From NCBI GenBank assembly GCA_934646835.1, contig CAKUES010000003.1:16500-80499 (forward strand): a stretch of DNA of 64,000 bases, read 5' to 3'. This DNA is from an uncultured Coriobacteriales bacterium. Its GTDB lineage: Bacteria; Actinomycetota; Coriobacteriia; Coriobacteriales; QAMH01. Position numbers and translations under genes: made by a program. Each line of letters begins with the position of its first letter. Positions within the stretch are counted from its first letter, which is position 1. The notes beneath the pieces were generated by a model. That model saw nothing but the letters and a program-made list of their open reading frames with translations, was not told the origin of the DNA and did not search any database. Positions 4,542 to 53,490 of the stretch are shown here, in pieces.

Positions 4542-4594
4542 GTGACACCATTTGTACCAGTGACACCAAATGTCACTGGTACAAATGGTGTCAC
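4542..4594. repeat. family-1 palindromic repeat, short form (24-bp perfect stem, CCAAA loop)
   Basis: GTGACACCATTTGTACCAGTGACA-CCAAA-TGTCACTGGTACAAATGGTGTCAC, between ettA and the PAP2 gene. Confidence 0.9.
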
Positions 4595-7595: not shown

Positions 7596-7885
7596 GCCCC
7601 CGTAGGGGAGGGTCCCCTGGGCTGTGCGGCTGTGGACCCCGTAGATGAGGGGCCTTTGGATCACGTGGCTGCAACCTCCGTAGGGGAGGGACCCTGTCCC
7701 TCCCCATACACCGCTCATCCCTCAACCGCTCCCGAAAACCGTCATTCTGAACGGAGCTTGCAGCCTGCGGTCCTAATCCCCGTAGGGGAGGGACCCTGTC
7801 CCTCCCCATATGCCGTGCAACCCTCGACCGCTCCCAACAACCGTCATTCTGGGCGCAGCGCGCAGCGTGGAGTCGAAGAATCTGG
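7596..7885. repeat. family-2 core array: two ~112-bp tandem units plus degenerate upstream cores
   Basis: CCGTAGGGGAGGGACCCTGTCCCTCCCCATA occurs at 7678 and 7790, each followed by ...CCGCTCCC.A.AACCGTCATTCTG.... Weaker cores are at 7599 and 7637. Confidence 0.85.
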
Positions 7886-8675: not shown

Positions 8676-8792
8676 CTAGGGAAGTGCTGATTAAAGCAAA
8701 TGCACGCTGCATGCGATTGGCAGAAACGCTGGTCACGCAGGGGAGGGACCCTGTCCCTCCCCATAAACCTCGCTTTGCTCAGCGTTTTCCTG
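8676..8792. repeat. family-2 MITE-like element
   Basis: CTAGGGAAGTGCTGATTAAAGCA...GGGGAGGGACCCTGTCCCTCCCCATAAACC...CAGCGTTTTCC; aligns with 45764..45883. Confidence 0.85.
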
Positions 8793-10194: not shown

Positions 10195-10298
10195 GTGACA
10201 CACTTTGTGCCAGTGACATTGTGTATCACGCCGTCGAGTCGTAGGTTAACGTAAGCTTTCTGCGTGATACACAATGTCACTGGCACAAAGTGTGTCAC
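10195..10298. repeat. family-1 repeat, long form (two inverted 35-nt modules + 34-nt spacer centred on GTTAAC)
   Basis: GTGACACACTTTGTGCCAGTGACATTGTGTATCAC...GTGATACACAATGTCACTGGCACAAAGTGTGTCAC. Confidence 0.9.
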
Positions 10299-14530: not shown

Positions 14531-14611
14531 TGTCACTGGGACTTTGCGCGAAGCGTGTGACACCAGATGACACCAGATGACACCAGATGTACCAGTGACA
14601 TTGTGTGTCAC
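14531..14611. repeat. family-1 repeat, degenerate copy carrying a 3x 10-bp tandem (GACACCAGAT)
   Basis: TGTCACTGGGACTTTG...GTGACACCAGATGACACCAGATGACACCAGATGTACCAGTGACATTGTGTGTCAC. Confidence 0.75.
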
Positions 14612-16110: not shown

Positions 16111-16224
16111 GGAGACGCTGATTAATGCAGGGTTTATGGGGAGGGACAGGGTCCCTCCCCTACGTAACCAGCGGTTTTGCCAACCATGTGCAGTGAACAT
16201 CTGCCTCAATCAGCGCTTTCCTAG
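16106..16224. repeat. family-2 MITE-like element (inverted orientation); overlaps the aminopeptidase stop codon
   Basis: CCTAGGGAGACGCTGATTAATGCA...GGGGAGGGACAGGGTCCCTCCCC...AATCAGCGCTTTCCTAG. The TAG at 16108-16110 is the stop of the preceding CDS. A partial core is also present at 16330-16352. Confidence 0.85.
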
Positions 16225-16280: not shown

Positions 16281-16360
16281 GGGACGAGGGCGCAGGAGCA
16301 AGCTGCGGATGCATTGGGATGATGATTGCGTAGGGGAGGGACAGGGTCCCTCTGCGGGAC

Positions 16361-17735: not shown

Positions 17736-17755
17736 CGAGGGTCTATTTGCCAAGG

Positions 17756-17857
17756 CCTGTCCCAAAATGCACCTGGTCTTTTATGGGACAGGGGATGTTG
17801 CAAATTGCTCGCAGCTCGCCCTGTCCCATAAAAGACCAGGTGCATTTTGGGACAGGG
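17756..17857. repeat. family-3 nested palindrome
   Basis: CCTGTCCCAAAATGCACCTGGTCTTTTATGGGACAGGG-loop-CCCTGTCCCATAAAAGACCAGGTGCATTTTGGGACAGGG; begins 20 nt after the HAD stop. Confidence 0.9.
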
Positions 17858-18019
17858 CGTCGCTTTGGTCGAGCCGTTCGCCGCCGCATTGCGGACGCGC
17901 TCGCTTCTCCATTCCCCGTCGAAAATCGACAGTTGCGCTTGATGTGTCGATGTTTACATGCAATGTACATGCATCTCATCTATAATCCACATCAAAACTA
18001 CTGACTATTTGGAGTATCA

Positions 18020-19224: not shown

Positions 19225-19277
19225 GTGACACCGTTTGTACCAGTGACACCAAATGTCACTGGTACAAACGGTGTCAC
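19225..19277. repeat. family-1 repeat, short form
   Basis: GTGACACCGTTTGTACCAGTGACA-CCAAA-TGTCACTGGTACAAACGGTGTCAC. It differs from copy 4542 by one compensated base pair. Confidence 0.9.
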
Positions 19278-26053: not shown

Positions 26054-26158
26054 ATGACACACTTTGTGCCAGTGACATTGTGTGTCATGCCATAGAGCCG
26101 CAGGATATCCCCGAGCCTTCTGCATGACACACAATGTCACTGGCACAAAGTGTGTCAT
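26054..26158. repeat. family-1 repeat, long form (spacer centred on GATATC)
   Basis: Base-for-base identical to 48886..48990. Lies between convergent metI and the U32 gene. Confidence 0.9.
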
Positions 26159-28793: not shown

Positions 28794-28972
28794 TGGAAAA
28801 CGTTGATTACGTAGGGAGGGACCGAAGTCCCTCCCCATAAGCCTCGCATTATCTAGGGAAATACTGATTAATGCAGATGTCCACTGCGCATGGTTGGCAA
28901 AACCGCTGGTTACGTAGGGGAGGGACTCTGTCCCTCCCCATAAGCCTCGCATTTAATCAGCGCTTTCCTAGG
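28794..28972. repeat. family-2 element, about 1.5 tandem copies (internally deleted copy + full copy 28853-28972)
   Basis: GGAAAACGTTGATTACGTAGGGAGGGACCGAAGTCCCTCCCCATAAGCCTCGCATTAT is followed by CTAGGGAAATACTGATTAATGCA...CAGCGCTTTCCTAGG. Confidence 0.85.
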
Positions 28973-30949: not shown

Positions 30950-30994
30950 CGTGACACCGTTTGGCACCTTTTGTACCAGTGACATTTGGTGTCA
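30950..30994. repeat. family-1 repeat, single module, inside the rib operon
   Basis: GTGACACCGTTTGGCACCTTTTGTACCAGTGACATTTGGTGTCAC, between ribE and ribBA. Confidence 0.8.
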
Positions 30995-31045
30995 CGATGT
31001 GTTGGTTGGGTTGTGGGTAGGCTCGGCTTGTCTGCTCTTTGTGCT

Positions 31046-32830: not shown

Positions 32831-32840
32831 GAAAACCACC

Positions 32841-32947
32841 TTCTTCCATCCAGACTGTACTGTCGGTCACGGAGTTGCACCGTGTCAGCCAATGAGGCTC
32901 GCGGACTGTCACCGCCGGTCGGGAATTTCACCCTGCCCTGAAGATGT
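32841..32947 (-). promoter_or_regulatory. FMN riboswitch (RFN element) controlling the rib operon
   Basis: The minus strand reads AUCUUCAGGGCAGGGUGAAAUUCCCGACCGGCGGUGACAGUCCGCGAGCC...GGUGCAACUCCGUGACCGACAGUACAGUCUGGAUGGAAGAAGG. This matches the conserved RFN core nearly base for base against B. subtilis ribD as I recall it. Confidence 0.92.
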
Positions 32948-33116
32948 ATGCGATTGATTGGGAGGATAAAACCCCAGCGTTTCCCTGTCAATGTGGCTGC
33001 CCCGGGTAATCCGAGCTTTTTGTCCCAAATACCCAGTCTTTGACCACCTTGACCGCCCGCTCCCTATATTTTTGCGACCCTAAATACGGTCTGTTCGCCG
33101 AACCTGGCAAGGAAAC

Positions 33117-33220
33117 GTGACACACTTTGTGCCAGTGACATTGTGTTTCACGCAGGAGAGTCGTAGGTCAACGCGAGCGCGCTGCGTGATGCACAATGTC
33201 ACTGGCACAAAGTGTGTCAC
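33117..33220. repeat. family-1 repeat, long form (spacer centre GTCAAC)
   Basis: Two inverted 35-nt modules, about 170 nt upstream of the FMN riboswitch. Confidence 0.9.
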
Positions 33221-35936: not shown

Positions 35937-35971
35937 GGAGCGGACGTCGATGCGGGCGTCGCACCCCGTTC

Positions 35972-36072
35972 GGTGTCCCATTCGGACCTGGTCTTTTTTG
36001 GGACAGGGAGAGCGGCTAATGGGGTGCAGCCTGCTCTGTCCAAAAAAAAGACCAGGTCCCGAATGGGACACC
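35972..36072. repeat. family-3 nested palindrome (between the repressor and HMA genes)
   Basis: GGTGTCCCATTCGGACCTGGTCTTTTTTGGGACAGGG-loop-CTGTCCAAAAAAAAGACCAGGTCCCGAATGGGACACC. Confidence 0.9.
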
Positions 36073-36120
36073 TCGCAGGATTCATTTCATCCATCCACCC
36101 CAACCCCAAAGGAGCATCCC

Positions 36121-36407: not shown

Positions 36408-38309
<1,902 letters not shown>

Positions 38310-38345
38310 GGGCTGGGGCTGCGGTCGCTCGGCAAGGCTTGGCCC

Positions 38346-38449
38346 GTGACACACTTTGTGCCAGTGACATTGTGTGTCATACAGAAGACCCACGTTAACC
38401 AGCAAGCTCACGGCATGACACACAATGTCACTGGCACAAAGTGTGTCAC
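38346..38449. repeat. family-1 repeat, long form
   Basis: Ends 10 nt from the RAYT stop codon. Spacer is centred on GTTAAC. Confidence 0.9.
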
Positions 38450-38458
38450 GGGAACTCG

Positions 38459-39184
38459 TCATTGCGAGAGAATTCGATGCACTGTTGATCTTGAGACTCC
38501 GGTCAATCTCGCTATCTGGGCTTTGGTGAAGCCGTTGTCAGACAGCTTTCTCACGGAAGCGTCTCTAGAGGCCATGTCCAGACCTTTTACTGTGGTTGGG
38601 CTATCGAGGCCCAGAATGCGCTTTGCTTCTTCCACTGCGTCGTTGTCAGTTGTCCGGAGTCCTTGGTACAGGGTTTTCTTGCTAAAACCGGTGCAGTCTT
38701 GCTTATCAGACAAGTCAATCATCAGAGAATCATCCAGCAGGAAGCGCTTACCGCAGTATTCCTGGTAGCTGCTCCAACGATAACTTGCAGGATGCTCGAC
38801 GATTTGAGCCCTGACCGGATTATTGTGGATGTAGTGAATGGCTGCGGCGAGGTATGATTCGCTCGCGATGGGAAAGCTGCTAAAGGTTCCTTGGAACAAG
38901 TGTCCGGTCCTAGAGTGTCTTCTATTTATGTCCTTGGCGTATCTCTCTTTGACCTGCTTCATTGCTGGCGTTATGTCTTCAAGTGGTGCCATCACTAGAA
39001 GATGGAAATGGTTGTCCATTAGGCACCAAGCGGCAACTTTGATGTCGTGTGCAACGCAAGCCTCTTTGAGCAAGCGCAGAAAATGGCGCCTGTCGTCATC
39101 ATCTTCGAAGATTATCTGACCGCCAACTCCGCGGCTGGTCACGTGATAGAGATTGCAGAGACTGATTTTGCGCGGTCTTGCCAT
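38459..39184 (-). CDS. IS200-fold HUH/Y1 transposase-like protein (REP-associated tyrosine transposase candidate) with C-terminal HTH
   Basis: 241 aa. YHVTSRG..., HUH motif DNHFHLLV, GHLFQGTFSS, catalytic-Tyr helix AIHYIHNNPVRA, and C-terminal AQIARLTGVSRSTVHRIL. Confidence 0.8.
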   Translation of the reverse strand: MARPRKISLCNLYHVTSRGVGGQIIFEDDDDRRHFLRLLKEACVAHDIKVAAWCLMDNHFHLLVMAPLEDITPAMKQVKERYAKDINRRHSRTGHLFQGTFSSFPIASESYLAAAIHYIHNNPVRAQIVEHPASYRWSSYQEYCGKRFLLDDSLMIDLSDKQDCTGFSKKTLYQGLRTTDNDAVEEAKRILGLDSPTTVKGLDMASRDASVRKLSDNGFTKAQIARLTGVSRSTVHRILSQ

Positions 39185-39277
39185 TTGGCTCCTCTCGAAG
39201 TGCGTGGCTCAACACCCTGCCTTACGTAGGAGCCAAACACAAGGAGAGCCTTTCAATCAGCATCGTAAAAACATAAG

Positions 39278-39392
39278 ATGACACACTTTGGACACACTTT
39301 GTGCCAGTGACATTGTGTGTCACGCAGAGCGTTTGCGTTAACCTGCGGCTCCCTCCCGTGACACACAATGTCACTGGCACAAAGTGTGTCAT
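39278..39392. repeat. family-1 repeat, long form with an 11-nt partial duplication (GACACACTTTG x2)
   Basis: Begins 94 nt upstream of the RAYT start. Spacer is centred on GTTAAC. Confidence 0.9.
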
Positions 39393-39422
39393 CCATCGAA
39401 GCACTCCCGCCTTCGCGCGTCT

Positions 39423-39965
39423 CTAATCCAGCAGGCGCTCGTAGTCCTCTTTCACGAAGCGGTGGTAGATGACGTGACCCATCTCCTCCTTGAAGCAGTA
39501 ATAATGGGAGTCGATGGACGGGTCGGCAAAGTGCATGCCGTAGTCGAACTCGGCGCCGGCGGGCATGTTCTCGAGGACGTAGTCGTCGGAGTACCTGGCA
39601 AACAGGCCGATGATCTTCTCTTTGGCGGGATGGTGCTCGGTCAAGAAGAGGTCGATGAGGTCGACCAGAAAAGCCGGTGCGGGGACTTCCTCGTGCACGT
39701 ATTTGGAGCCTTGCGGCGGGATGCGGACCTCGATGCGGTCCTCGTGGGTACCGAAAGTGACGTTGCCCAAGGGCGAGTCATCCAAGACATGCGCCTTGGT
39801 CAGCTCCTTACACAGCGTGGTCGCATCAGGGGCGTCGGTCCCGATCAGGGAGTTGAGCGAGGAGACCTTGTAGTAAAAACGCGTCGACTCGTACGCGTAG
39901 CCGAGCTTGATCTGCAGCTCGACGATCTGGTCGATGATGTCCTTCTCAAGCCTTGCGACGTCCAT
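39423..39965 (-). CDS. hypothetical protein (DUF3877-like, from memory)
   Basis: ORF 39423..40007 trimmed to ATG 39965 (GAGAAAGGG SD). KLGYAYESTRFYYKVSSLN and YYCFKEEMGHVIYHRF resemble a Firmicute DUF family I recall. Confidence 0.5.
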   Translation of the reverse strand: MDVARLEKDIIDQIVELQIKLGYAYESTRFYYKVSSLNSLIGTDAPDATTLCKELTKAHVLDDSPLGNVTFGTHEDRIEVRIPPQGSKYVHEEVPAPAFLVDLIDLFLTEHHPAKEKIIGLFARYSDDYVLENMPAGAEFDYGMHFADPSIDSHYYCFKEEMGHVIYHRFVKEDYERLLD

Positions 39966-40111
39966 CGCAAACCCTTTCTCTCGCATGCCCGTAGACGCCG
40001 GCGCCAACCTGCATCTTTAAACGTGCAACCAACCATTTGTTCAATCATCCCTATAATACCCATACAGACAAGCACCACTAGCATCTGTTAACCAGACGAA
40101 AAGAGGGCTTC

Positions 40112-41035
40112 ATGGGTTTTCTTGACGCTGCCAAATCGGCAATCGACGCCGGAGTGGGCATGGCGGGCAACGCCGTCGGCTCCGTTGCGAGCGCGGCAAA
40201 CGACTTTGGGGTCGAGCGCATGGAGTTTATGCGCGGCCTGGCAAACCTCTGCACCGAGGGTTGGAAGATGGGCTGGCACGAGGCCAACGGCGGCAATGTG
40301 TCCTACCGCCTCAAAACCGATGACGTAGAGGCCTGCCGCGCGGCCTTCAAGACAGACGCCGCCTGGGTGGAGCTTGGCATTACCTGCCCGCAGATGGCAG
40401 GTGAGTTCTTTGCTGTCACCGGCACCGGCAAGCACCTGCGCCTTGTCGAGAGCGCTCTCGCCAAGAGCATCGGCATCGTCGAGGTCAGCCCGCTAGGCGA
40501 CAGCTATCGCATCGTCTGGGGGCTTTCCGACGGCACTGCACCCACGAGCGAGCTGCCGAGCCACATCCTCATCCATGCCGTGCGCGCGGAGGCAACGGAC
40601 TATCACTCCCGCATCCTCTACCACGCGCACCCATCCAATGTCGTGGCCCTCACCATGGTACTGTCCGGCTGCGCCCGCACCATCACGCGCGCGCTGTGGG
40701 GCGCGATGACGGAGTGCATCATGCTCGTCCCGCAGGGCCTGGGCTTCGTCGAGTGGAAGATGCCGGGAAGTGCCGATATCGCGCAGGCAACCGCTGAATG
40801 CATGAGAGAGTACCCTGCCGTCGTCTGGGCCCACCACGGGCTGTTCACCTCAGGATCGAGCTTCCAAGACGTCTTTGGGATGGCACACACCATCGACAAG
40901 GCCGCGGGCATCTACCTGAGCGCGCGTGCGGCCAACGGCGGCAGCGACGACTTCGCCTCCACCATCAGCAATGAGAACCTCCTGCAGATATGCGACGAAC
41001 TGTCGCTTGACTGCAAGAGAGAGTGGCTCGAGTAA
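40112..41035 (+). CDS. rhaD: class II aldolase, rhamnulose-1-phosphate aldolase-like
   Basis: 307 aa. GWHEANGGNVSYRL, VTGTGK, TSELPSHILIH, HAHPSNVVALT; collinear with E. coli RhaD as recalled. Confidence 0.7.
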   Translation: MGFLDAAKSAIDAGVGMAGNAVGSVASAANDFGVERMEFMRGLANLCTEGWKMGWHEANGGNVSYRLKTDDVEACRAAFKTDAAWVELGITCPQMAGEFFAVTGTGKHLRLVESALAKSIGIVEVSPLGDSYRIVWGLSDGTAPTSELPSHILIHAVRAEATDYHSRILYHAHPSNVVALTMVLSGCARTITRALWGAMTECIMLVPQGLGFVEWKMPGSADIAQATAECMREYPAVVWAHHGLFTSGSSFQDVFGMAHTIDKAAGIYLSARAANGGSDDFASTISNENLLQICDELSLDCKREWLE

Positions 41036-41074
41036 GGCTCGGGCGATCAAATCCACAGCAAGGAGAACCACCAG

Positions 41075-42571
41075 ATGACCAAGCGCTACATCATCGCCCT
41101 CGACCAGGGCACGACATCCTCGCGCACCGTGCTCGTCAACCGCGAGGGCGCGATCTGCGGGATGGCACAGCGAGAATTCCCGCAGCTCTACCCCAAGCCC
41201 GGCTGGGTCGACCACGACCCCAAGGACATCGTCGGCTCGCAGCTTGGCACTTTCACGGAGCTCATGACGCAAATGAGCCTGTCGCCGGACGATATTGAGT
41301 GCATCGGCATCACCAACCAGCGCGAGACCACCGTCATCTGGGATCGCGAGACCGGCGAGCCCATCGCCAACGCCATCGTCTGGCAGTGCCGCAGGACTGC
41401 AGACGTCATCAGCGAGATCTGCGGTGACGACCAGGAGGTCTTCGAGCAGATCACCAAGAGGACTGGGCTGAGGCCGGACCCGTACTTCTCTGCGAGCAAG
41501 GCCAAGTGGCTGCTCGACAACGTCGAGGGCGCGCGCGAGAAGGCCGAAGCCGGCAAGCTCGCCTTTGGCACGGTGGACACCTGGCTCATCTGGAACCTCA
41601 CCAACGGTCGCGTCCATGCGACCGACCCCACCAACGCAAGCCGCACCATGCTCTTCAACATCCACGCCGGCGATTGGGACGACTACCTGCTCGACTTGTT
41701 CGACATCCCTCGTTCGATGATGCCGGAAGTCCGCCCCTCGTCGTCGGATTTTGGCTTCACCGCCAACCCCAACCTCCCGCAAGGCATCCCCATCTGCGGC
41801 GTCGCGGGCGACCAGCAGGCGGCGCTCTTTGGGCAGTGCTGCTTCGAGGCGGGCCAGGCCAAGAACACCTACGGCACTGGCTGCTTCTTCTTGATGAACA
41901 CCGGCACCGATGCCCCCGTGAGCGAGAACAACCTCGTCACGACGATTGCGGCAAGCGCGCCCGGCGAGCCGACCAAGTACGCGCTGGAGGGCAGCGTGTT
42001 TGTCGCCGGCGCACTCATCCAATGGCTGCGCGACGAGCTTGAGCTCGTCAAGAACGCCAGCGACAGCGAGCAGCTCGCGCTGAGCGTTCCCGACAGCGCC
42101 GGCGTCTACATCGTCCCTGCCTTCACGGGCTTGGGCGCACCCTATTGGGACAGCGACGCTCGCGGCAGCATCTTTGGCCTCACGCGCGGCACCACGAAGG
42201 CTCACATCGTCCGCGCCGCACTCGAGGCGCTGGCCTATCAGATGCACGACCTCGCCATTGCCATGGAGGCGGATGCAAAAAGGCCCATCGCCGCCCTCAA
42301 CGTCGACGGTGGCGCAGCGCGGAACAACTTCCTGATGCAGTTCCAAAGCGACATGCTCGGCTGTGAGGTGAGGCGCCCGACGAACACGGAGACCACCGCG
42401 ATGGGTGCGGCCTTCCTCGCGGGTCTGTCCACCGGCTTCTGGAAAAACACGAGCGAGCTTACCGCCCTTCGCGGTAACGACGATGTCTTCGAGCCCAAGA
42501 TGGGCGAGGCGCAGGTTGCCGAGCACCTAGCCGGTTGGAAAGATGCCGTCTCGAGGACGCTGACGAGGTAG
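41075..42571 (+). CDS. glpK: glycerol kinase
   Basis: 498 aa. YIIALDQGTTSSR, GWVDHDP, ITNQRETT, GDQQAALFGQ. Confidence 0.95.
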   Translation: MTKRYIIALDQGTTSSRTVLVNREGAICGMAQREFPQLYPKPGWVDHDPKDIVGSQLGTFTELMTQMSLSPDDIECIGITNQRETTVIWDRETGEPIANAIVWQCRRTADVISEICGDDQEVFEQITKRTGLRPDPYFSASKAKWLLDNVEGAREKAEAGKLAFGTVDTWLIWNLTNGRVHATDPTNASRTMLFNIHAGDWDDYLLDLFDIPRSMMPEVRPSSSDFGFTANPNLPQGIPICGVAGDQQAALFGQCCFEAGQAKNTYGTGCFFLMNTGTDAPVSENNLVTTIAASAPGEPTKYALEGSVFVAGALIQWLRDELELVKNASDSEQLALSVPDSAGVYIVPAFTGLGAPYWDSDARGSIFGLTRGTTKAHIVRAALEALAYQMHDLAIAMEADAKRPIAALNVDGGAARNNFLMQFQSDMLGCEVRRPTNTETTAMGAAFLAGLSTGFWKNTSELTALRGNDDVFEPKMGEAQVAEHLAGWKDAVSRTLTR

Positions 42572-42584
42572 AGGACGAGTGGGC

Positions 42585-42688
42585 GTGACACACTTTGTGC
42601 CAGTGACATTGTGTGTCACGCCGGAGAGCCGTAGGTTAACGCGAGCGCGCTGCGTGATACACAATGTCACTGGCACAAAGTGTGTCAC
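42585..42688. repeat. family-1 repeat, long form
   Basis: Lies between convergent glpK and queH. Spacer is centred on GTTAAC. Confidence 0.9.
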
Positions 42689-45763: not shown

Positions 45764-45883
45764 CCTAGGGAAACGTTGATTAAAGCAAGTGCCCGCTGCG
45801 TACGATTGCCAAAACCGCTGGTCACGTAGGGGAGGGACCCTGTCCCTCCCCATAAACCTTGCTCTAATCAGCGTTTCCCTAGG
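45764..45883. repeat. family-2 MITE-like element (best-preserved copy)
   Basis: Terminal inverted repeats CCTAGGGAAACGTTGATTAAAGCA / TGCTCTAATCAGCGTTTCCCTAGG (22/24 complementary). Core is GGGGAGGGAC-CCT-GTCCCTCCCC. Confidence 0.9.
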
Positions 45884-48885: not shown

Positions 48886-48990
48886 ATGACACACTTTGTG
48901 CCAGTGACATTGTGTGTCATGCCATAGAGCCGCAGGATATCCCCGAGCCTTCTGCATGACACACAATGTCACTGGCACAAAGTGTGTCAT
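48886..48990. repeat. family-1 repeat, long form (identical to 26054..26158)
   Basis: Direct comparison of the two 105-nt strings shows no mismatch. Confidence 0.9.
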
Positions 48991-49097: not shown

Positions 49098-49174
<77 letters not shown>

Positions 49175-49199: not shown

Positions 49200-49276
<77 letters not shown>

Positions 49277-50753: not shown

Positions 50754-50852
50754 CCGTCCCAAAAAGGACCTGGTCTTTTGTGGGACAGGGGCAGGTCGCG
50801 GGTCTTTGCGCATCTCCACGTCCCATAAAAGACCAGGTCCTTTTTGGGACGG
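50754..50852. repeat. family-3 nested palindrome
   Basis: CCGTCCCAAAAAGGACCTGGTCTTTTGTGGGACAGGG-loop-CGTCCCATAAAAGACCAGGTCCTTTTTGGGACGG; begins 18 nt after the PAP2 stop. Confidence 0.9.
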
Positions 50853-53376: not shown

Positions 53377-53490
53377 CTGGAGAAGCGTTGATTAACGCGA
53401 GGTTTATGGGGAGGGACAGGGTCCCTCCCCTACACAGCCATCGGTACCTACGTAAGGAGGGACCCTGTCCCTCCTCATAAACCTCGCGGT
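53377..53490. repeat. family-2 variant: two cores head-to-head forming one long palindrome
   Basis: CGCGAGGTTTATGGGGAGGGACAGGGTCCCTCCCCTAC...GTAAGGAGGGACCCTGTCCCTCCTCATAAACCTCGCG. Confidence 0.85.

Follow-up and report, generated by a model that had tools for sequence, protein, structure and literature searches.

A 64,000-nucleotide stretch of the genome of an uncultured Coriobacteriales bacterium (contig CAKUES010000003.1, positions 16,500 to 80,499, here called the window and numbered from its first letter) holds a gene of the REP-associated tyrosine transposase (RAYT) type, REP standing for repetitive extragenic palindrome. The gene lies on the minus strand at 38459–39184 (241 residues, stop codon included) and was defined from the list of open reading frames (ORFs), Pfam, NCBIfam, AlphaFold2, and Foldseek. 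It is bracketed by two copies of one composite palindrome, at 38346–38449 and 39289–39392. A preliminary description of this DNA had called the locus REPtron-like, a lone and domesticated transposase gene between its cognate repeats, and had placed the palindrome 10 nt past the stop codon and 94 nt before the start. The same palindrome does stand on both sides, at 9 nt downstream and 104 nt upstream of the gene; the figure of 94 holds only if a partial extra module end (TGACACACTTTG, 39279–39290) is counted. This end is a tandem duplication of 11 nt on the side of the upstream doublet that faces the gene. Between the ATG and this partial end runs a 94-nt leader (39185–39278, minus strand) with the ribosome-binding site GAGAGGAG. 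The leader is homologous in an orthologue of 76% identity (locus L199), where the stretch TTATGTTTTTACGATGCT.ATTGAA is also found and a AAGTGTGTCA remnant occupies the same position as the partial module end. A promoter scan over 38200–39500 found no match to the sigma-70 consensus in the leader.

The neighbours are a gene for a P-type ATPase, convergent with the RAYT-type gene, and a gene for a DUF3877 protein. The ORF list and the neighbouring genes contain no tnpB at the locus, and tblastn together with a six-frame profile search found no second copy of the gene in the window, in agreement with the lone gene described earlier. The exact protein occurs in human gut samples, including Hadza samples, and its gene neighbourhood is the same on all contigs shown (10 places shown and 7 similar, of 23 contigs read). 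On these contigs the gene is a single, fixed locus, and the many identical copies expected of an ordinary multicopy insertion sequence did not appear.

The ORF contains the DNHFHLLV, AIHYIHNNPVRA, and AQIARLTGVSRSTVHRIL motifs exactly as first reported, that is a HUH motif, a tyrosine helix, and a C-terminal helix-turn-helix (HTH). Profile searches identify the protein as a Y1 transposase of the RAYT kind, as had been proposed: Pfam Y1_Tnp (PF01797) scores 47 bits against a cut-off of 23, and NCBIfam NF047646 (REP_Tyr_transpos) 82.6 bits against a cut-off of 80, while the IS200 equivalog NF033573 fails with 21 bits against 55. The NF047646 match spans residues 11–138 (38771–39154, minus strand) and delimits a Y1/HUH catalytic domain with H59 and H61 in NHFH, the LFQG motif, Tyr118 in YIHNNP, and the serine motif YRWSSY. 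The C-terminal HTH domain covers about residues 205–241 (38462–38572, minus strand); HTH_7 (34 bits) and HTH_23 (29.9 bits) match residues 209–240 in Pfam, and such matches recur among family members. The AlphaFold2 model has a pLDDT of 89.5 and places C-terminal helices at residues 204–216, 221–228, and 232–240. Its top Foldseek match in the PDB is E. coli TnpAREP (4ER8; E 4e-7, TM 0.69 normalised to the target), followed by IS608 and ISDra2. A single-sequence search of the PDB gave only noise; a profile of 34 homologues retrieved 4ER8 (E 1.5e-6) ahead of ISDra2 (6e-3) and of the IS200 transposases. The protein groups with RAYT/TnpAREP, away from IS200 TnpA.

H59, H61, Y118, N122, and P123 are invariant in the 34 homologues, as is the motif YRWSS with W137, S138, and S139. 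The dN/dS ratio against an orthologue of 78% identity is about 0.09, with synonymous sites near saturation, and the gene is under purifying selection. The family comprises 8,812 clusters at 50% identity with E ≤1e-30, and the best 150 of these are nearly all full-length, at roughly 240–265 residues. Relatives are scarce on plasmids (23 of 72,556 records, full-length in one only) and appear in a single phage record.

The unit of the flanking repeats is a 35-nt module, GTGACACACTTTGTGCCAGTGACATTGTGTGTCAC, which folds into an imperfect hairpin of −8.9 kcal/mol. A 9-bp foot is followed by a T.T/T.T internal loop and a 3-bp stem, which carries a 7-nt apical loop; the top, TGTNCCAGTGACA, is conserved. 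A classical REP is an imperfect palindrome of 20–40 nt whose foot bears a conserved GTAG (or CGTC) tag. Here the foot reads (C/G)RTGACAC and lacks either tag, so the earlier statement that the repeat is unrelated to the GTAG type stands. Two modules in inverted orientation, separated by a 34-nt spacer, make a doublet of about 104 nt that folds into one long hairpin of −46 to −51 kcal/mol with z below −10. As single-stranded DNA (ssDNA), the downstream flanking doublet, the stem of which reaches 38343–38452, folds at −48 kcal/mol (z −12.3) and the upstream one at −45.9 kcal/mol (z −10.8). These doublets have the anatomy that defines REPINs: inverted REPs, a short spacer, a single hairpin, and mirrored variants.

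The family is dense in the window. A 24-mer motif with at most 3 mismatches has 18 matches, against 0 in 100 shuffles, and a looser 35-mer search yields 11 loci: 7 doublets, 2 compact hairpins, and 2 single modules. The preliminary description had counted nine copies besides the flanking pair; nine loci there are, of heterogeneous make-up. Five are full doublets located by motif search, at 10195–10298, 26054–26158, 33117–33220 (between the FKBP and RibD genes, with no counterpart in the sister species), 42585–42688 (between GlpK and QueH), and 48886–48990 (downstream of deoC). Two more, found in the same way, are compact 53-nt perfect hairpins at 4542–4594 and 19225–19277, both of a sequence variant that we call type B to distinguish it from the common type A; the first has a 24-bp perfect stem, a 5-nt loop, and the module variant GTGACACCATTTGTACCAGTGACATTTGGTGTCAC. 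The 35-mer search added two single modules on the plus strand, a type-B-like module at 30961–30995 and a hybrid at 14577–14611. The hybrid follows three tandem GACACCAGAT decamers (14559–14588), which are spaced by one helical turn, run straight into the module, and look like reiterated protein-binding words. All 11 loci are intergenic, although the gene assignment around 26054–26158 is uncertain.

Comparison of the copies suggests what has been copied. The doublets at 26054 and 48886 are identical, spacer included. The spacers of all seven doublets are 34–35 nt long, homologous at 54–100% identity, and centred on GTTAAC or GATATC, and the copies at 10195, 26054, 48886, and 38346 carry private substitutions that recur, mirrored, in the opposite arm. 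Because of these identical copies, homologous spacers, and mirrored arm variants, the data point to the whole doublet as the copied unit, as in REPINs. Inspection found no T-run after the hairpins, a terminator scan limited to 38200–39500 placed no site at the two flanking repeats, and no Rfam family matches them. Two pattern scans of JGI metagenomes returned 0 matches and then 102 single matches, which we treat as chance because none carries the extended module. Complementary bases just outside the modules (C...G, CC...GG, CCC...GGG) were considered as a trace of insertion into small palindromes; they occur in 5 of 6 copies, are suggestive only, and are not relied on here.

The association between gene and repeat extends well beyond this genome. 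We fetched 80 loci encoding relatives from reference genomes, whose hosts include many Collinsella species, Eggerthellaceae, Thermophilibacter, Lachnospiraceae, Oribacterium, Syntrophomonas, and others; 65 had a full-length gene and enough flank. At least one inverted 12-mer is common to the 300 nt upstream and the 300 nt downstream of the gene in 42 of the 65 loci, compared with 0 of 201 control pairs of windows displaced within those loci. The flanks of the relatives are palindromes or arrays around GGGAC/GTCCC cores, with GGGGACAG or GGGGACGG seen. Thermophilibacter provencensis, the best match in the reference-genome scan (in which the host species itself did not appear) and the closest cultured relative at 45% identity, has flanks of the GTGACAG/CTGTCAC type. 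The closest metagenomic relatives (78%, 76%, and 60–61% identity) lie on contigs whose two ends fall inside related modules, just as far from the gene as in the window. Their modules are GTGACACACTTTGTCCCAGTGACATTG for the 78% orthologue and CCAATGTGTACCAGTGACA(A/G)GTTGG for the 60–61% relatives, and beside the 76% orthologue stands a flanking doublet of GTGACACCATTTGTACCAGTGACATTTGGTGTCAC, exactly the minor type B of the window. Given the flank sharing in 42 of 65 loci against 0 of 201 controls, together with the related modules around the closest relatives, the pairing of gene and repeat is not accidental. The check on co-occurrence proposed in the preliminary description thus came out in its favour, with protein and repeat co-varying across relatives.

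Across the closest relatives (60–78% identity) the apical 13-mer is kept while the foot changes. In an alignment of 14 modules, pairs 1–35, 6–30, 8–28 (A-T to C-G), and 9–27 (C-G to A-T) have changed on both sides in a compensatory fashion. The covariation score of 0.152 exceeds that of shuffles (0.073; none of 500 as high) and of slid partners (0.056 at most); it may be taken as supporting evidence, short of proof, for a conserved fold, as the modules are few and related. Between types A and B, too, two stem pairs have changed in a compensatory way. Because the type B modules that are the minority in the window (4542, 19225, 30961) flank the 76% orthologue in another sample, the repeat type beside the gene appears to switch between lineages, with both types persisting in this genome. 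The 78% and 60% relatives (L091 and L200) come from the same run, SRR9969856, each with its own module type, and may be two paralogues in one genome. The contigs of L091, L092, L199, and L200 end inside repeats; this fits assembly breaks at a multicopy element, but Logan contigs are short anyway, and the longest contigs of the fifteen closest homologues (47–78% identity) reach only 0.9–2.3 kb.

The surroundings of the gene have been rearranged. To judge from GlpK, the host belongs with uncultured Coriobacteriales or Eggerthellaceae-like metagenome-assembled genomes, the best named matches having 79% identity, and two sister species (L094 and L095, with GlpK at 91% and 87%) provide the comparison. 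Their gene order is QueH> <DUF3877 aldolase> GlpK> <ATPase. Gene orders and a blastn strand flip against both identify in the window an inverted 3.2-kb segment (39421–42621) containing the DUF3877 gene, the aldolase gene, and glpK and bounded by the repeat family. Since this segment is inverted relative to both sister species, the window arrangement is the derived one. The junctions fall at 42585–42688 and 38346–39392, so that the RAYT-type gene sits at one of them and the doublet between GlpK and QueH marks the far end. In the 91% sister species, single 35-nt REP hairpins with 15-bp stems lie exactly at both junctions (L094 8277–8311 and 11524–11558); the 87% sister species has none there. 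The left arm of the 42585 doublet aligns with the sister-species REP beside GlpK and its right arm with the REP beside QueH. This suggests that recombination, or enzyme-mediated strand exchange, between repeats lies behind the inversion.

The protein can be compared with the published classes of RAYT. Subclass 2.1 is described as having about 238 residues, NH[YF]H, 'FQ', Y[IV]H.NP, and SS motifs, and a C-terminal HTH (Bac_DnaA_C, HTH_23, HTH_28) (PMC6006769). The 241-residue protein, with NHFH, LFQG, YIHNNP, YRWSSY, and HTH_7/HTH_23, fits Table 1 of that study, an assignment by motif inspection. On motifs and architecture it is thus a putative member of the HTH-bearing Group 1 RAYTs, alias subclass 2.1 or TIRYT. 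Quentin et al. 2018 equate subclass 2.1, especially 2.1.2, with Bertels Group 1 and with TIRYT/TIRtron, and tabulate it as 'REP: no' (PMC6006769). Di Nocera et al. 2013 define TIRYT/TIRtrons as RAYT-like genes with terminal inverted repeats bearing GGGGWSAS, some of them in moderately abundant families and in dimers (PMC3733652). According to Bertels et al. 2017, 16-mers flanking Group 1 genes average about 12 per replicon and Group 1 is the most IS-like RAYT group (PMC5581495); Bertels and colleagues read its members as co-opted single-copy genes without REPINs.

The TIRtrons are similar in many respects: a protein of ~240 residues with the same HuH, FQ, tyrosine-helix, and SS motifs and a C-terminal HTH_23/HTH_7; low copy number; inverted repeats at fixed distances from the gene, with some dimeric repeat families; and, in the relatives of the present gene, flanks with GGGAC or GGGGWSAS-like cores. 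They differ in that the window contains a true hairpin module, paired into REPIN-like doublets and locally abundant (11 loci in 64 kb), in that the core is CGTGACAC (GTGACA/TGGCACA), which agrees with GGGGWSAS at 6 of 8 positions, and in the host, Coriobacteriia lying outside the described examples. The E. coli REPtron (TnpAREP with REP/BIME sequences; 4ER8; PMC3479197, PMC8266576) shares the lone Y1 nuclease with the same fold, bracketed by cognate imperfect palindromes that are dispersed in intergenic DNA. Identity to 4ER8 is only ~13% in the Foldseek structural alignment, however, and the present protein has an extra HTH tail of 100 residues; its repeat is built on a 35-nt module without the GTAG tag, in another phylum, and the conserved determinant is apparently the apical loop.

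The REPIN-RAYT systems of P. fluorescens SBW25 and Neisseria (Bertels & Rainey 2011, PMC3116915) resemble the locus in the repeated unit, an inverted REP pair with a short spacer in a hairpin of ~100 nt, in the mirrored arm mutations, in the single-copy RAYT between repeats, and in having several families per genome. Their RAYTs belong to Group 2/3, lack the HTH, and keep their genomic position within species groups, whereas the gene described here is placed differently from its sister species. The IS200/IS605 elements share the HUH/Y1 fold and the hairpin-recognising chemistry, and IS608 and ISDra2 are the next-best structural matches. The locus departs from an insertion sequence of this family in its IS200 model score below the cut-off, the absence of tnpB, the single locus in place of multiple identical copies in the window and on the contigs shown, and the symmetrical flanking doublets in place of distinct left- and right-end hairpins.

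The locus is best filed as REPtron/TIRtron-like, of the HTH-bearing class, with a dense REPIN-like population, a non-GTAG module, and a new host clade. The earlier label of REPtron is apt insofar as a gene is bracketed by its repeats; the better published name is HTH-bearing Group 1/subclass 2.1 (TIRYT/TIRtron), not the classical REPtron of Group 2/3. We found no literature linking RAYTs or REPs to Coriobacteriia or containing these repeat sequences, which accords with the initial suggestion that the pairing may be undescribed in this clade. The locus is a new example in Actinomycetota of a system known from Proteobacteria and introduces no new principle.

These comparisons lead to a working model, to which we assign a probability of about 0.65, in which the locus is of REPtron/TIRtron type and its enzyme maintains and spreads the doublets in trans. 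The Y1 domain would bind the folded module on transiently single-stranded DNA, with His59 and His61 holding the metal and Tyr118 acting as the nucleophile. Cleavage beside the foot of the hairpin would produce a 5'-phosphotyrosyl link, followed by strand rejoining. Doublets could in this way be excised, copied, or reinserted in trans, and a dispersed population would be maintained. Sequence-specific binding, probably to the recurrent GTGACA/TGTCAC words, would be added by the C-terminal HTH. All catalytic steps are inferred from E. coli TnpAREP and IS608; where the enzyme cleaves, what the HTH does, whether the system is active today, and whether the gene cassette still moves are likewise matters of inference.

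Several observations pull the other way. The NF047646 score barely exceeds its cut-off. The surveys' rule that subclass 2.1/Group 1 is REP-less or weakly REP-associated argues against a REPIN-mobilising role. No doublet is polymorphic for presence or absence among 10 strain contigs compared over 20 kb at ≥98.7% identity; the positions are fixed in these 10 strains and give no sign of recent mobility. Over a longer span, a sister species lacks doublets at three sites, in intergenic regions too diverged to define empty or target sites. The composition of the gene (50% GC; 57% at third codon positions, GC3) is far below that of its neighbours (59–64% GC, GC3 82–87%), and it is absent at the syntenic site in both sister species. 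On these two counts it resembles a mobile or acquired cassette more than a domesticated gene fixed long ago, and the word 'domesticated' in the preliminary description goes beyond the evidence. On a separate point, one strain contig (L002 291–300) lacks ~60 nt of the 48886 doublet, about one arm and the spacer (window 48894–48955), through either a genuine collapse of the hairpin or an error of assembly.

The acquired look of the gene is the starting point for a different reading, in which gene and terminal repeats form a low-copy autonomous TIRtron that moves as a cassette, the doublets are derivatives akin to miniature inverted-repeat transposable elements (MITEs), and the gene is selfish. 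Absence from the syntenic site in two sister species implies that the gene arrived in this lineage, and the deficit in GC and GC3 persists in the 76–78% orthologues. These orthologues also keep the gene-repeat geometry and the AAGTGTGTCA remnant, as a co-travelling unit would, and the IS-like character ascribed to Group 1 agrees with such behaviour. Against a moving cassette stand the single locus on all contigs of the species that were shown, the lack of another copy in the 64-kb window, a family almost absent from plasmids and phages, and complete symmetrical doublets around the gene that share the architecture of the dispersed copies and give no distinct left and right ends. The doublets were also considered as internal-deletion derivatives of the cassette, and this was rejected: their spacers are unlike the subterminal sequence of the cassette (by inspection; no formal comparison), and the innermost gene-flanking modules are oriented opposite to the doublet arms. 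On balance we regard the autonomous cassette as unlikely, though it is the strongest of the competitors to spreading in trans.

Less probable again is that the host has recruited the protein for DNA binding or processing, with the HTH on duplex GTGACA words and the Y1 domain nicking or resolving hairpins in genome structuring, replication-fork processing, or recombination; the repeats would then be binding sites that spread by other means. Bertels and colleagues' view of Group 1 as co-opted and REPIN-less accords with this idea, as does the suggestion by Quentin et al. that the tail, HTH or DnaA-like, directs the protein to other DNA processes. The modules do reiterate GTGACA/TGTCAC hexamers, three decamers stand at helical-turn spacing at 14559–14588, and the ends of the inversion fall in repeats. 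Near-identical distant copies that include the spacer, together with the species-specific gain of doublets, nevertheless point to copying of the whole unit, and compensatory stem changes indicate a folded single-strand substrate rather than a duplex operator. Least credible of all is mere chance adjacency, in which the palindromes would have nothing to do with the gene and would serve generally between genes, for instance as terminators or mRNA stabilisers. The window does contain at least three further palindrome families, intergenic palindromes are common here, and with 11 occupied sites it is not impossible for two to adjoin the gene. This explanation is contradicted by the flank sharing among relatives, which was absent from every control, by module sequences that track protein divergence, and by the lack of T-runs and Rfam matches at the repeats and of terminator sites at the two flanking ones (scan of 38200–39500); it is strongly disfavoured.

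The window contains other palindromes and structured elements that stand apart from this argument. Palindrome families besides the one studied here include a GGGACAGG type and a GGGGAGGGACCCTGTCCCTCCCC type. A second family of inverted doublets has a module of approximately CCTGTCCCAAAATGCACCTGGTCTTTTATGGGACAGGG with a GGGACAG core and occurs at 17749–17863, 35965–36080, and 50754–50852. It resembles the flanks of the Collinsella relatives of the gene, and a paralogous Y1-HTH gene is predicted for it elsewhere in the genome, none having been found in the 64-kb window. The third family, GGGGAGGGACCCTGTCCCTCCCC, is a palindrome of 19–23 nt with nine copies, at 7683–7705, 7785–7807, 8742–8760, 16140–16158, 16335–16353, 28919–28937, 45831–45849, 53410–53428, and 53456–53474, some of which are paired in larger inverted repeats (45764–45883 and 53396–53488). 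A large inverted repeat at 2401–2591 has 49-nt arms with two AAACCACCCAG words per arm, and a CCACCCAG word is also present in the flanks of a relative of 55% identity (P0009, locus L201). An FMN riboswitch lies upstream of ribD at 32834–32949 (minus strand), and the 33117 doublet sits a short way upstream of that region. A tandem pair of tRNA genes with identical Rfam scores lies at 49098–49171 and 49200–49273 (plus strand). The riboswitch and the tRNA genes are ordinary features.

Taken further, the trans-acting reading raises the tentative possibility, to which we give slightly less than even odds, that HTH-bearing Group 1/subclass 2.1 (TIRYT) enzymes drive genuine REPIN populations in gut Coriobacteriia. 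Recognition would combine the apical loop, TGTNCCAGTGACA, with the HTH and dispense with a 5' GTAG tag; stems would drift by compensatory change and module types would switch between sister lineages; several families would coexist, each presumably with its own paralogous enzyme; and inversions, as well as moves of the enzyme gene itself, would have their breakpoints in the repeats. Work on REPIN-RAYT systems treats them as long-lived replicators within genomes that pass on by vertical descent, and nearly all of it concerns Group 2/3 enzymes of Proteobacteria. In the present locus the HTH-bearing class, which surveys report as REP-less, is linked with a clear and dense repeat population, in a common actinobacterial lineage of the human gut. 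The repeats mark the breakpoints of an inversion and may fragment metagenome assemblies, though short contigs are the norm in that collection. The relatives offer a natural series of enzyme and repeat variants, with a conserved loop and a compensating stem, for studies of recognition, and the locus would broaden both the taxonomic and the enzymatic range of REPIN-RAYT-like systems.

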